A stretch of DNA of 64,000 nucleotides from Alphaproteobacteria bacterium. GTDB taxonomy: Bacteria > Pseudomonadota > Alphaproteobacteria > JAGOMX01. Both the position numbers and the translations under genes were made by a program. The stretch lies in assembly GCA_041738135.1 (NCBI GenBank), contig JBGSQK010000018.1:4103-68102 (forward strand), read 5' to 3'. Shown piece by piece: positions 40,552-44,882 of the stretch (positions within the stretch are counted from its first letter, which is position 1; every line of letters begins with the position of its first letter). The notes under the pieces were generated by a model. The model searched no databases and was not told the origin of the DNA. It saw only the letters and a list, made by a program, of their open reading frames with translations.

Positions 40552-41310
40552 TTACTCATACTCTTTCCTGATATTACGGACTCTAGCCAGATATTCATTG
40601 AGCAATTCTCGCATACATACTTCATGACCAAATCCAGGAATTCCTGACGCGAGAATGGTATGGTAATATTGATTCATATACACGAGAATTCTTCCATTGC
40701 CGTAGTAGCAACCCTTTTCGAAAACCTGGCATGATTCACCCGTCTGTACATTCAAGATCAAAGCCCTGGGTCGCTCCATCAGTTTGGTTGAACTTTTGTA
40801 ACTTTTCTGAAATTCAGCCAAGAATTCCTCATGCCCCTTTTCTTGAAGCAGAAGCTTAAGACGCTTCACGTCTGACGAATTCAGGCCTTGCGCTTCATAT
40901 GGATAGCATTGAAGAGTCTCGCTACCGGGCCTATCCTTAAATATGCCAAGTATGGGGGACACATAGGACGATTCAACCGTAAATCCGCCGGTAACAAGAG
41001 TGTTATAGACATCCGCAAGCAAAACACTTGGTATAGCACAAACAAGGCTAACTTTGCATTCAGCGCGTATTTTCAGAGGAAAATTAGAAATGAATCGAGA
41101 GAATTTTTGTGTATCAAAAGACTTAAAATTCACATGCATGAGACCGACTCTTCTACCAAGCAGAACGATGCGCACACCAACACACTCAACGATACTATCT
41201 GTTGCTAAAAACGGTGTGTCGGCAAAGTTCTTGCTATCCAATAGTTTATACTCGCCCACGTCCACTTCGTGGAATCGTTTTTTAATTCCATTCGGCGTAA
41301 ATGAAAGCAA
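40552..41310 (-). CDS. hypothetical protein
   Basis: 252-aa ORF with no signal peptide and no recognised motifs. Coding is inferred from the long ORF only. Confidence 0.35.
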   Translation of the reverse strand: MLSFTPNGIKKRFHEVDVGEYKLLDSKNFADTPFLATDSIVECVGVRIVLLGRRVGLMHVNFKSFDTQKFSRFISNFPLKIRAECKVSLVCAIPSVLLADVYNTLVTGGFTVESSYVSPILGIFKDRPGSETLQCYPYEAQGLNSSDVKRLKLLLQEKGHEEFLAEFQKSYKSSTKLMERPRALILNVQTGESCQVFEKGCYYGNGRILVYMNQYYHTILASGIPGFGHEVCMRELLNEYLARVRNIRKEYE

Positions 41311-41340
41311 ACTGGTGGGGTCAATAATTGTATGCTTTGT

Positions 41341-41553
41341 TTACGGGAGCTGAAGGGCAGAGCGTAAGGCAGCAGGAATTCGTTTCTGGTATTCCTCATT
41401 ACTCAAAAGTTCAACACCCTGATTAGTACCTTTTTTGAGCTCCTTGATAAACAGCCCATCATCGGACGCATGGGACTTAGTAGGCGCCATAAAAACGACC
41501 AAGGATAAAAGTAGAATAACATTTCTCATAAACAAACCTTTCGCTATTAACAT
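41341..41553 (-). CDS. hypothetical small secreted protein
   Basis: 70 aa with a clear signal peptide (LLLSLVVFMAPTKSHA). Confidence 0.35.
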   Translation of the reverse strand: MLIAKGLFMRNVILLLSLVVFMAPTKSHASDDGLFIKELKKGTNQGVELLSNEEYQKRIPAALRSALQLP

Positions 41554-41752
41554 GAATGTATTTATAGCATTTGATAAATCTAGTCAATAAATTTAGGAAT
41601 TAATTCATATTTATGGGCTCTTTGTAATAAGAAGCATACTGACCAAGCGACATAATAAATAAATTTACTATTTACTCCTTGACAACCCACATACCCATGC
41701 CTATATGTCATATGTAAGCAATGTTTAATTTAATATATTTTAGGAGATAACG

Positions 41753-42280
41753 ATGATTAAGAAGACCACTTTAGTACTAACACTATTAGCAGGCACAACA
41801 AGCTTGGCGAATGCCAGTGATGATGCAGCTTATGCTGAATCTTTAGGTACAGCTATGACTCAAATGCAATGCTCTAAATGTAATTCTGTTTATACATCAG
41901 AAAAGGAATTTGAGGGTAATGTTTATCGCATGTCTCATAGCTGTGTGAGCAAGTTTGATCTGAGGAAAATGGAAGTTCAAGAGAAAGAAGATCAGATGAA
42001 AGCAGGACCTTTGTTTGATGATAAAATAGATCTTGCAAAATACTTTAAACAGTTAGAGGCAAGTGCTTCTCGTTACGAATATGTGCTTCCATGTCTTAAG
42101 TTTACACCAATATTTGATTTAAGCATTCGTAAACATATTAGCGAAAAATTACTTAAAGATACTAACGCCGCACTTGTACTTTCAGTACCACCTATGCCTG
42201 TGCGAGAGTTTAAGCTTAATGTAGCTCCTCACCTAGATGATGTCATTGAAGAGGTAAACCAAGATAATACAGGTAAGTAA
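41753..42280 (+). CDS. hypothetical secreted protein
   Basis: 175 aa with signal peptide LAGTTSLANA, 4 Cys residues, and a strong terminator downstream. Confidence 0.45.
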   Translation: MIKKTTLVLTLLAGTTSLANASDDAAYAESLGTAMTQMQCSKCNSVYTSEKEFEGNVYRMSHSCVSKFDLRKMEVQEKEDQMKAGPLFDDKIDLAKYFKQLEASASRYEYVLPCLKFTPIFDLSIRKHISEKLLKDTNAALVLSVPPMPVREFKLNVAPHLDDVIEEVNQDNTGK

Positions 42281-42303
42281 AAATTGCCGCTAAAAGAAAC
42301 GAA

Positions 42304-42331
42304 GGGATGTGTTTCCACATCCCTTTTTTTT
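42304..42331. terminator. strong intrinsic terminator GGGATGTG-TTTC-CACATCCC + T8 (bidirectional, A-rich upstream)
   Basis: A perfect 8-bp stem followed by TTTTTTTT. It lies between the convergent secreted-protein gene and the lipase gene. Confidence 0.85.
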
Positions 42332-42342
42332 ACCTGCAATCC

Positions 42343-43704
42343 TTACAGCCCAAAGAACCCAGCAATACCGCTGCGAATTTTCTGAAAACCAGCGACGAAG
42401 GATTCCTTAGCCTTATTAGCCATTTGAGGAACTGCTTCTTTCACATAATTGATAGCAGAATTAACTTTGCTACGAATTTGTGCGCGGATACCTTGATCGT
42501 TAGCAGGTTGCTCTGTCTGCTTTTTAATAGTCAGCTGGCTAGCTATACTTGTTTTCACGCTAGTTACAGATTCCTTAATAACCTTTTTGGCTGGGTTAAG
42601 TGCGTTATCTTTAATGTATCGAGCCGCGCCAAACACAGCTTTACCAACAGTGGTTTGGCTGATTTGGGTTCGAATGCCCACTGGTTGCTCGGACATAGCA
42701 TTGCGTTGGATCACAGCATTACCCGCCGCTCCATTTTTGAATACGGAGAGCGAATGGTCTGCAGCCTTATTCCACCAGGAACCGCCTTGAACCATAATTT
42801 TCATTCCCGCATGCTTAAAGCCAAGAACACCCAATAAAATTCTATGGACGATGTCGCCTTCAGAATGGAATATGGCAATATTTTCTTCGCCAAGAATATT
42901 GTTGACCAGTTCAGCAAAATTTTTACTGCCAACCCGCGGTGAGTTGAATGAAGCCACTTTGCATTCAATGTTATAGCCCATGGAGTAGGCATATTGCTTC
43001 AAGTGTAAGGCTGTGAGTTGCGCCAGACCGCCGCCTAAGCTATGACCGCAAACTGTAACTTGCGTCACACCTTCTTTCAGTGAAGCTAAAAACGGAGCAG
43101 TCAGTTCTTCCATATATGACTTAAATACTTTGTTGATGCCAGCATGTACACCCGCGCCCGAGAACCTGGATTTTTCACCCCAGCCATTGAGCACATGCAA
43201 ATCAGTCACCAAGTCTGCTACCACATCAGTACCACGCAGTGCGACCATTAGTTTGTGGTCCTTTTTAGCCAACAAACCAATTTCCGTCTCTTTTTCCGCC
43301 CCTAAAGGCAATATGCTGTGTCCGGTGGTGCCGTTAAAGCTCTTAAAGCCTTTCCAGCCATTGGATTGCAGGTGTGTCAGTAAATTACTATATTGGGTTT
43401 TTTCATCCGCGTTAAATTTAGATTTAAACTGTTTATACGCCAGATCTGCAAACAGAACGGCTTCATCCGCTTCTTCGGGTAGAAAATTAACCCTCTTCCC
43501 TGGCACAGAACTCTTAATGTTCTGATCCATGCTTACTTTGTTCGAGAGATGCTTTTGCTCGGAAGAAAGGCGAGACGCCACGCTTGAACGATCAAGCGAA
43601 CGCTGAACTTCATCCAAAGTGGTTACGTCACCAGCATAAACCCCTGAAAGGGAAGATGTTGCCAAAGCCGTGGAAACTAATAATGTATAAACTAACTTCT
43701 TCAT
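42343..43704 (-). CDS. secreted class-3 lipase family protein (alpha/beta hydrolase, GHSLG nucleophile elbow)
   Basis: Signal peptide MKKLVYTLLVSTALATSSLS, a lipase_3-like core with VCGHSLGGGLAQLTALHL, and an extended C-terminal Lys/Ala-rich region. Confidence 0.65.
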   Translation of the reverse strand: MKKLVYTLLVSTALATSSLSGVYAGDVTTLDEVQRSLDRSSVASRLSSEQKHLSNKVSMDQNIKSSVPGKRVNFLPEEADEAVLFADLAYKQFKSKFNADEKTQYSNLLTHLQSNGWKGFKSFNGTTGHSILPLGAEKETEIGLLAKKDHKLMVALRGTDVVADLVTDLHVLNGWGEKSRFSGAGVHAGINKVFKSYMEELTAPFLASLKEGVTQVTVCGHSLGGGLAQLTALHLKQYAYSMGYNIECKVASFNSPRVGSKNFAELVNNILGEENIAIFHSEGDIVHRILLGVLGFKHAGMKIMVQGGSWWNKAADHSLSVFKNGAAGNAVIQRNAMSEQPVGIRTQISQTTVGKAVFGAARYIKDNALNPAKKVIKESVTSVKTSIASQLTIKKQTEQPANDQGIRAQIRSKVNSAINYVKEAVPQMANKAKESFVAGFQKIRSGIAGFFGL

Positions 43705-43844
43705 TTTAATAACTATTTCTCTGTAATATTTCATGTCATGGGCGTGAATCCACCTATGAGCATGTTATTTATACATTTTTTATTAAAATGAGCACAATGC
43801 TAAATCAGCATAGCTGTTATGCGATAATGTGATTCAGGGTGGGG

Positions 43845-44882
43845 TTATGTTGATTTCTTGGGAACCAAAAAACTCTGTCCAAAATCGGGGGCCACAAAAG
43901 CATGTGTAGGAATTCCATGTTTGGTTTTTGCTACCTCCAGATCAATGGCAGGCTGCTCATAGGGCTCGTCACTCATCTGGAATGTTTGAAAGTGAATACC
44001 ATAACTTTGCCGGGATTTAAGATCCAAGTGTGCCTTCACCGCATCCTCAGGATTAAAGTGCACATGCTGCATAAACCAACGAGGCTCATAGGAGCCAATA
44101 GGCAACATAGCCAGATCCATGGCGCCGAAACGTTCCTGTATTTCCTTAAAGTGTGGACCGTAACCCGTATCGCCGGCAAAAAACACTTTGGCATCTTCAA
44201 CGTGGACGATAAAGCTACCCCATAAGGTCATGTTGCGATCGTTAATCCACCGCCCAGAAAAATGTTGAGCTGGAACCAAGGAGAATTTAGCATGTCCTAA
44301 ATCTATGGTTTGCCACCAGTCCAAAGTCTGCACCTTCTCAGTTATGCCAAAAGACCTAAAATGATCATCATTACCCAACCCCGCTAGAAACAGAGGATCA
44401 TGATCTCTTTTCAGCTTCAGAAGAGTCTCCTTATCCATATGGTCATAGTGATCATGAGATATGATAACCACATCAATCTTTGGCAACTTCTCATAAGCAA
44501 TCCCCGCCTCATGCACCCGCGTAGGCCCTGCCCAGATCACGGGGCTAGCTCGATTATTGTACTGGGGATCAGTCAAAATATTAAGCTCGCCCGTTTGTAT
44601 CAGACTACTGGCATGATTCACAAACGTCACCACCATATGCTCATCCGTAGGCAATGGAATAGGGTGGTTAGCAGCCGGAATAATCTCCTTAGGCCAGACA
44701 GAATGATCACCCGTCAACCGCCAACGAATAACACTCCATAAGGTAGTAGTCGAAGTTTTCACAGGATTCATAAACTTGATACCATCAAAATTATGACTAA
44801 CCGGCCCCTGATGACGCGGGCGCTTTTTATATTGCGAAGCAATAAGGCCTATAAATGATATGAACAATATTGTAATAAGCAT
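43845..44882 (-). CDS. MBL-fold metallo-hydrolase, NAPE-PLD-like
   Basis: An N-terminal TM/signal segment and the HxHxDH motif (ISHDHYDHMD). The family resembles N-acyl-phosphatidylethanolamine phospholipase D-type MBL proteins. Confidence 0.6.
   Translation of the reverse strand: MLITILFISFIGLIASQYKKRPRHQGPVSHNFDGIKFMNPVKTSTTTLWSVIRWRLTGDHSVWPKEIIPAANHPIPLPTDEHMVVTFVNHASSLIQTGELNILTDPQYNNRASPVIWAGPTRVHEAGIAYEKLPKIDVVIISHDHYDHMDKETLLKLKRDHDPLFLAGLGNDDHFRSFGITEKVQTLDWWQTIDLGHAKFSLVPAQHFSGRWINDRNMTLWGSFIVHVEDAKVFFAGDTGYGPHFKEIQERFGAMDLAMLPIGSYEPRWFMQHVHFNPEDAVKAHLDLKSRQSYGIHFQTFQMSDEPYEQPAIDLEVAKTKHGIPTHAFVAPDFGQSFLVPKKST

Follow-up and report, generated by a model that had tools for sequence, protein, structure and literature searches.

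Two genes lying side by side in an alphaproteobacterial genome (assembly GCA_041738135.1, contig JBGSQK010000018.1), one encoding a class-3 lipase and the other a metallo-β-lactamase (MBL)-fold protein related to the phospholipase NAPE-PLD, raise the question of whether they belong to an islet of secreted, lipid-active proteins. We examined this for positions 40552 to 44882 of a 64,000-nucleotide stretch of the contig, hereafter the window. An earlier note, made from the sequence of the window, had divided this segment among five independently regulated accessory genes and had proposed that the two enzymes jointly remodel host or vacuolar membranes. Our analysis favors, with moderate confidence, a different reading: the segment is a lineage-variable part of the chromosome that holds four functionally unrelated genes and no coordinated lipid-remodeling module. 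On this reading, the pairing of a lipase with a NAPE-PLD-like gene is of little consequence: both belong to known enzyme families, and no evidence ties their functions together.

All five open reading frames (ORFs) of the earlier note were recovered in an ORF listing at the coordinates it gave, but the segment contains four genes, not five. A 252-amino-acid (aa) ORF, which begins at TTG, and a 70-aa ORF share the same frame and are split only by the TAA at 41341-41343; translation of the minus strand over 40552-41553 shows one internal stop (…RSALQLP, stop, TKHTIIDPTSLLSF…). Homologous proteins of 300 to 354 aa read …LPKTxHxIxDPxxLFxF… precisely across this position and are colinear on both sides of it, and the two ORFs are therefore two pieces of one gene. 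Because the homologues read through with Lys, Arg, Gln, or Glu at the position of the TAA (motif LP-K-T-x-H-x-I-x-DP), the stop stands for one of these codons, a change for which a single base suffices. Thus, the 252-aa unknown protein of the earlier note exists as an ORF but makes up just part of a longer, interrupted gene, and of its two small signal-peptide proteins, the 175-aa ORF stands while the 70-aa ORF is a gene fragment. The lesson is that in-frame stops should be looked for between neighboring small ORFs before each is taken for a secreted protein of its own. The features of the segment and of its right border, with the evidence for each, are as follows.

40552 to 41529, minus strand: interrupted CheD/NTAN1/CNF1-like gene (frame with one internal stop, colinear homologues, fold match)
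41467 to 41529, minus strand: signal peptide of the interrupted gene, MRNVILLLSLVVFMAPTKSHA followed by SDDG (read by eye; equivalents in full-length homologues)
41341 to 41343, minus strand: in-frame TAA nonsense codon (alignment with homologues)
41134 to 41202, minus strand: codons of a putative triad, Thr 41202-41200, Cys 41184-41182, and His 41136-41134 (alignment, spacing)
41753 to 42280, plus strand: orphan 175-aa protein (ORF, ribosome-binding site)
42301 to 42326, both strands: bidirectional intrinsic terminator (hairpin free energy and z score, A-run and T-run)
42343 to 43734, minus strand: class-3 lipase with signal peptide (Pfam Lipase_3, alignments)
42346 to 42729, minus strand: C-terminal extension of the lipase, residues 336-463 (homologue alignment, composition, tblastx)
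43845 to 44882, minus strand: NAPE-PLD-family MBL-fold protein (Lactamase_B_2; human NAPE-PLD 4qn9)
45032 to 45949, minus strand: ApbE, FAD:protein FMN transferase (Pfam ApbE, E = 3e-69)

The gene order of the window is alphaproteobacterial (hemH, rho, rsmG-parA-parB, alaS-recA, leuS-lptE-holA, and cpa/tad pilus genes). Its LeuS is 70 to 84% identical to those of uncultured relatives, ∼63% identical to those of Rhodospirillales, and ∼60% identical to those of Nucleicultrix and Caedimonas, which places the source in a lineage of Alphaproteobacteria without a cultured close relative. The right flank (LeuS-LptE-HolA-DsbD-thioredoxin-DUF3570-outer membrane protein-ApbE) is kept in relatives, ApbE being the last gene of the conserved block, with the breakpoint at its 3′ end. 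In five independent relatives, the order matched that of the window up to ApbE and then diverged differently in each: duplicated DUF3570 modules and UvrD followed in one of the five, Kup and ATP synthase genes or SH3, dUTPase, and Dfp genes in others, and a 317-aa secreted protein or a 66-aa ORF with DUF3987 in the remaining ones. The left-flank genes of the segment (MaoC, YjdM, kinase, and ribonucleotide reductase [RNR] genes) were next to ApbE in none of the five; as they never abut ApbE in relatives, the comparison does not establish a clean indel. The only recurring adjacency is that of the MBL and lipase genes, which are side by side in a closer relative as well (L081/L082; JGI 3300050211, SRR35795013; 86% nucleotide identity).

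The layout of the segment differed from the one put forward earlier as grounds for independent regulation, namely, alternating orientations and strong terminators between the genes. The ORF order reads minus, minus, plus, minus, minus, with just one gene on the plus strand, and a single strong terminator was found, the hairpin at 42301-42326 (ΔG of −22.2 kcal/mol, z score of −6.1, flanked by an A-run and, at the opposite end, a T-run) between the convergent 175-aa and lipase genes. A weak 6-bp hairpin lies at 40516-40530, and terminator prediction found none between the MBL and lipase genes.

The lipase matched Pfam PF01764 (Lipase_3) over residues 164-299, its alpha/beta-hydrolase core, with 71.3 bits against a cutoff of 22 (E = 1e-19). 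The GHSLG of residues 230-234 aligned with that of the solved lipases 6unv and 3ngm, which puts Ser232 (codon 43041-43039) in register with their nucleophile. G230, H231, S232, and G234 were invariant among the homologues, as was His327, and Asp295 (EGDIV) aligned with the DPVP Asp of fungal lipases, at a position where the homologues carry Asp or Glu. Judged from these alignments, the protein is a true class-3 lipase with an intact predicted Ser232/Asp295/His327 triad, as the earlier note had thought from the GHSLG motif; a missing serine, which that note had named as a ground against its own proposal, was not what the alignment gave. The likely start is Met11 at 43704, from which the protein begins with the signal peptide MKKLVYTLLVSTALATSSLSGVYA. 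Among 5.8 billion clustered sequences, a word-seeded search returned 15 homologues only, the best of them, its 90% cluster aside, being 37 to 41% identical, and they lie in unrelated gene contexts.

The Lys/Ala-rich tail ascribed to the lipase is real but its enrichment is modest: the last 128 residues contain 14% Ala and 10% Lys, versus 8% and 9% in the rest of the protein, with a net charge of +12 and a hydrophobic moment of 0.4 to 0.5. The family keeps a basic amphipathic C-terminal module of ∼45 residues (…AKxxFVxGFQxxRxGxAGFFG), the last 43 residues of the window lipase matching another locus (L085) by tblastx, and ∼60 extra residues precede this module in the window lipase. The charge and hydrophobic moment of the tail would fit amphipathic helices that bind membranes, and the module probably holds the enzyme on a membrane surface. 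We also considered a tandem duplication in the tail (EQPVGIRTQI and EQPANDQGIRAQI), which we do not claim, as BLASTP aligned the two halves nowhere. One lipase homologue adjoins a TLC-family ATP/ADP translocase gene (L083, 5028-6545) and another lies one gene away from such a gene (P0006 contig, JGI 3300075153); these two neighborhoods suggest obligately intracellular bacteria as the main carriers of the lipase family. At a further locus (L084, 366-8970), gene-transfer-agent or prophage head genes (portal, S78 protease, capsid, and head-tail connectors) lie near a lipase homologue that adjoins a phage lysozyme gene.

The MBL protein matched Lactamase_B_2 (PF12706, E = 1.2e-39), and its closest solved structure was human NAPE-PLD (4qn9; E = 7.5e-60, 206 bits), the next structure reaching 50 bits. 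Over 301 residues (query 36-337), the two proteins are 40.2% identical. The HDHYDH motif, within SHDHYDH, is encoded at 44439-44456, and H143/H145/D147/H148, H207, D238, and H297 align with H185/H187/D189/H190, H253, D284, and H343 of the human enzyme, whose zinc-ligand roles we take from the structural and mutagenesis literature; in addition, H275 aligns with human H321. By this alignment, the protein classifies as a NAPE-PLD-family di-zinc MBL-fold phosphodiesterase with all presumed zinc ligands conserved, so that the NAPE-PLD-like assignment of the earlier note stands at the family level, together with the SHDHYDH motif and the N-terminal hydrophobic segment. That segment spans residues 2-17 and is followed by the basic KKRPRH, which hints at a cytoplasm-facing catalytic domain. 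The N termini of homologues vary, with a transmembrane anchor, a lipoprotein signal, or neither.

The GTDB species representatives, a set that lacks the source genome, yielded 330 relatives of the MBL protein, the majority from free-living Acidobacteriaceae, Gemmatimonadaceae, Myxococcota, and Sphingomonas, and we examined the neighborhoods of 80 loci kept from these 330. A lipase gene or any other gene of the segment lay beside the MBL gene at 0 of the 80 loci, and clustering of the neighbors found none shared family-wide, only clade-specific ones. At four Sphingomonas loci (L075, L079, L080, and L066), the RNR alpha and beta genes lie 1 to 9 kb from the NAPE-PLD-like gene, and the RNR genes of the window (35595-38464) are likewise near the MBL gene; since the distances vary, we judged this proximity to be probably coincidental. 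Literature searches found no characterized bacterial member of the NAPE-PLD family. Bacterial homologues are abundant, with up to 40% identity to the human protein, and their substrates are a testable question about membrane-lipid turnover.

Turning to the interrupted gene, its probable true start is the ATG at 41529, and the 70-aa ORF comprises the signal peptide, which was read from the sequence and not by a predictor, plus ∼40 residues of the same protein. Since the nonsense codon falls between this signal peptide and the catalytic domain, inactivity of the gene in this genome, or a loss of function in the recent past, is probable. Past the TAA, 262 codons stay open and conserved, which points to a recent lesion or to an assembly or strain artifact. 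A HMMER scan of 1.84 billion representatives gave only 17 matches to the 252-aa ORF. Two of these (P0271 and P0276) were eukaryotic Ig or ARM repeat proteins and were dropped as spurious. The true homologues, ∼13 in number, are 290 to 354 aa long, each has an N-terminal signal peptide, and they align to the 252-aa query from about their residue 78. The 252-aa ORF had no credible match in Pfam, NCBIfam, PHROG, or PADLOC. At E values of up to 1, no Pfam family, CheD and NTAN1 included, matched any member of the alignment, apart from one trace in 1 of the 14 members, which touches PF02578 (the DUF152/YfiH family) at E = 0.056, and the family profile had no credible match among PDB sequences.

An AlphaFold model built from the 14-sequence alignment had a mean predicted local distance difference test (pLDDT) score of 84.6 and a predicted template modeling (pTM) score of 0.77. 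Foldseek searches of the PDB with this model matched human NTAN1 (E = 6.6e-6) and Thermotoga maritima CheD (E = 1.3e-4), both with probability 1.0, followed by YfiH/DUF152 proteins; CNF1 and CNFy were weaker matches. The TM-scores were modest, at 0.30 to 0.48. In the family alignment, His69 is invariant and Cys53 is at least 90% conserved (motif CVGV…G-x-M-H), and 12 of the 13 rows spanning the site keep Thr47, which precedes Cys53 by six residues. These residues form a putative Cys-His-Thr triad of the kind found in CNF1/YfiH-like cysteine hydrolases, and the model suggests that the intact gene would encode a Sec-exported amidohydrolase of the deamidase type.

“Candidatus Odyssella thessalonicensis,” a symbiont of amoebae, has an annotated member of this family (WP_010296912.1). 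A metagenome contig, possibly from a relative, carries the best homologue as a tandem pair with a paralogue, near an F-box-like gene and in a setting other than that of the segment. A possible, though doubtful, extension is that this rare family of ∼330 aa comprises undescribed secreted Cys-His-Thr deamidases of protist-associated alphaproteobacteria that modify host proteins, the copy studied here being in the process of loss. Small and without a Pfam assignment, the family combines a Sec signal with an NTAN1/CheD/CNF1-type fold and, if active, would represent exported deamidases of a new type; it is the only mildly novel element of the segment.

The fourth gene encodes a 175-aa protein with a signal-peptide-like N terminus (MIKKTTLVLTLLAGTTSLANA followed by SDD) and has an AGGAG ribosome-binding site upstream. 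Its GC content is 0.366 and its GC content at third codon positions (GC3) is 0.261 (z score of −2.3). The protein had no family match in Pfam, NCBIfam, PHROG, or PADLOC and no plasmid match, its cluster contains a single member, and a single-sequence model was unusable (pLDDT of 33).

Together, these results lead us to picture the segment as encoding four unrelated products. The deamidase-like gene would specify a Sec-exported Cys-His-Thr amidohydrolase of the CNF1/YfiH fold, split by a single nonsense codon, and the orphan gene an exported protein of 175 aa. The lipase would be Sec exported and sit on a membrane surface through its basic amphipathic module, and the MBL protein, held by a one-helix anchor, would most likely act in a phospholipase D-type manner on a glycerophospholipid from the envelope of the bacterium itself. 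The MBL enzyme probably belongs to housekeeping lipid metabolism, while it is plausible that the lipase and the deamidase-like protein are exported, possibly host-directed factors. Several points weigh against this reading. The relatives used for synteny are all distant (ApbE 65 to 74% identical). The MBL-lipase adjacency is kept in L081/L082 with no terminator between the genes, so that cotranscription and a shared role are possible. A host-directed role of the exported proteins is plausible from the proximity of TLC genes and the Odyssella member. The topology of the MBL protein is ambiguous, given that the lipoprotein signals of other members would imply a periplasmic location. Finally, the TAA may stem from a mistake in the assembly or from polymorphism among strains.

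Two alternatives bind the lipase and MBL genes together. An accessory islet, with a secreted lipase and a phospholipase D-like enzyme acting jointly on eukaryotic host or vacuolar membranes, as the earlier note had suggested, appears unlikely to us, even though the lipase has a signal peptide, two of its homologues have TLC translocase genes close by, which mark intracellular life, L081/L082 keeps the MBL and lipase genes adjacent, members of the deamidase-like family are found in Odyssella and elsewhere beside an F-box-like gene, and the region is not syntenic in relatives. The MBL family is common in free-living bacteria, widespread soil groups among them, and the MBL protein itself has a membrane anchor with positive charges after the hydrophobic segment and no cleavable signal peptide; the two genes were not paired at the 80 other MBL loci or at 4 other lipase loci; the sole effector-family match in NCBIfam, to XopAP, reached 24 bits against a cutoff of 400; and host association of the source organism is itself unproven. 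Joint membrane remodeling is unsupported and stays speculative. It is similarly improbable that the two genes form a catabolic unit for N-acylated or otherwise modified phospholipids, serving nutrient scavenging or envelope repair, in which the lipase would deacylate the substrate as ABHD4 does and the MBL enzyme would cut the phosphodiester as NAPE-PLD does. The genes are on the same strand, 110 nucleotides apart, without a predicted terminator between them, L081/L082, at 86% nucleotide identity, retains them side by side, and in the MBL protein, which shares 40% identity with NAPE-PLD, every ligand is conserved; NAPE-PLD is also reported to cut N-aldehyde-modified phosphatidylethanolamine (PMC12214272), which we count in favor of such a unit. 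However, the compartments appear to differ, the lipase being Sec exported and the MBL protein anchored and possibly cytoplasm facing, the probable lipase start has a promoter-like site just upstream, and the pairing is missing from the same 80 and 4 loci. Substrates also diverge within the family: yeast Fmp30p, a transmembrane-anchored protein 33% identical to NAPE-PLD, cleaves phosphatidylinositol and is inactive on N-acyl-phosphatidylethanolamine (NAPE) (PMC13392021), so NAPE specificity of the MBL protein cannot be assumed from similarity.

That the segment was acquired horizontally as an island in the recent past, or is what remains of a mobile element, would account for the synteny break at ApbE, the low GC3 of the orphan gene, and the presence of a pseudogene-like interrupted gene, but we regard such an origin as very unlikely. 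No tRNA or Rfam family was found in the window and no integrase or transposase in the segment, nor do meaningful direct or other repeats flank it, only short chance ones. The GC content of the segment is 0.419, versus 0.435 for the window, and its three larger genes, encoding the lipase, the MBL protein, and the deamidase-like protein, are genome-typical in GC and GC3 and lie within 0.4 standard deviations of the gene mean. There was no PADLOC match, PHROG matches were limited to generic esterases and hydrolases, and the orphan gene matched no plasmid; from the PADLOC and PHROG outcomes, we also rejected a defense system and an origin from phage. The segment thus lacks the integrase, the tRNA or repeat borders, and the atypical composition that characterize genomic islands and mobile elements. 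The earlier label “accessory” is apt insofar as synteny ends at ApbE and the lipase and deamidase-like families are rare, whereas neither borders nor composition mark out an islet. We therefore retain the reading of a lineage-variable segment with four unrelated genes.

Several features lie in the wider neighborhood. To the right, the ApbE-outer membrane protein-DUF3570-(DUF4266)-thioredoxin-DsbD cluster (45032-51625) is conserved across the lineage (L086, L098, and L099); one relative has it as a tandem duplication that includes three DUF3570 modules and two copies of ApbE, and in another (L101, 6892-12360) head genes of the kinds listed above for a gene-transfer agent or prophage lie near ApbE. 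To the left, 38659-40513 encodes an APH/choline-kinase-like phosphotransferase with a low GC content (0.375), a 69-aa YjdM/PhnA-domain protein, and a MaoC-type dehydratase. Between the RNR beta gene and the kinase-like gene sits a GC-rich inverted repeat (38507-38634) with 47-nucleotide arms, 83% complementary and 34 nucleotides apart; this may be either a REP-like element or a large terminator. The 15 kb upstream of the segment include genes with envelope- or host-interaction-type functions, encoding an RTX calcium-binding repeat protein (27412-29223, plus strand), a 497-aa Fic-domain protein (33121-34614, plus strand), and a PagL lipid A 3-O-deacylase (34723-35256, minus strand). Farther right, three consecutive large genes (57180-63881, plus strand) have signal-peptide-like N termini; they encode an RNase_T-type exonuclease of 686 aa, a Lon-like AAA+ protease of 763 aa, and an S9 prolyl oligopeptidase of 734 aa, and an apparently exported Lon together with an exported exonuclease is unusual.

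Compared with known systems, the MBL protein shares with Fmp30p a single N-terminal hydrophobic helix but differs from both NAPE-PLD and Fmp30p in being bacterial, in lacking a mitochondrial targeting sequence, and in having a shorter N terminus. The window lipase resembles the fungal-type class-3 lipases (Rhizomucor miehei and Fusarium) and plant phospholipase A1 in its GHSLG elbow, acid, and His, all of which align. Its similarity to the solved enzymes is weak (E of about 1e-7), its N-terminal region of ∼100 residues was matched by no family search, and the basic module ending in GFFG is found only in its handful of homologues. With XopAP, the class-3 lipase type III effectors of Xanthomonas, it shares a lipase domain in a secreted protein; the local NCBIfam match (E = 2.2e-5) covers 58 residues around the nucleophile, and we rejected membership in that family because the score is far below the cutoff. 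In addition, XopAP effectors carry a type III secretion signal, whereas the window lipase has a Sec signal peptide.

The deamidase-like protein is the one whose relation to known enzymes is visible in the predicted structure alone, since no sequence similarity to cysteine hydrolases of the CNF1/YfiH-like group, namely, CheD and NTAN1 (2F9Z and 6A0E; also CNF1 and BLF1), was detectable. The catalytic residues are Thr21/Cys27/His44 in CheD and Ser69/Cys75/His92 in NTAN1 (PMC7022378), a spacing of −6/+17 around the Cys, which the −6/+16 of the putative Thr47/Cys53/His69 resembles. In contrast to CheD, NTAN1, and CNF1, the gene studied here is broken by a stop codon. CheD and NTAN1 are cytoplasmic, while the deamidase-like protein carries a Sec signal peptide, and CNF1 is part of a large AB toxin, which this protein is not. 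It shares with NTAN1 an appended helical region at the C terminus, and 211 to 244 columns of the alignment match NTAN1.

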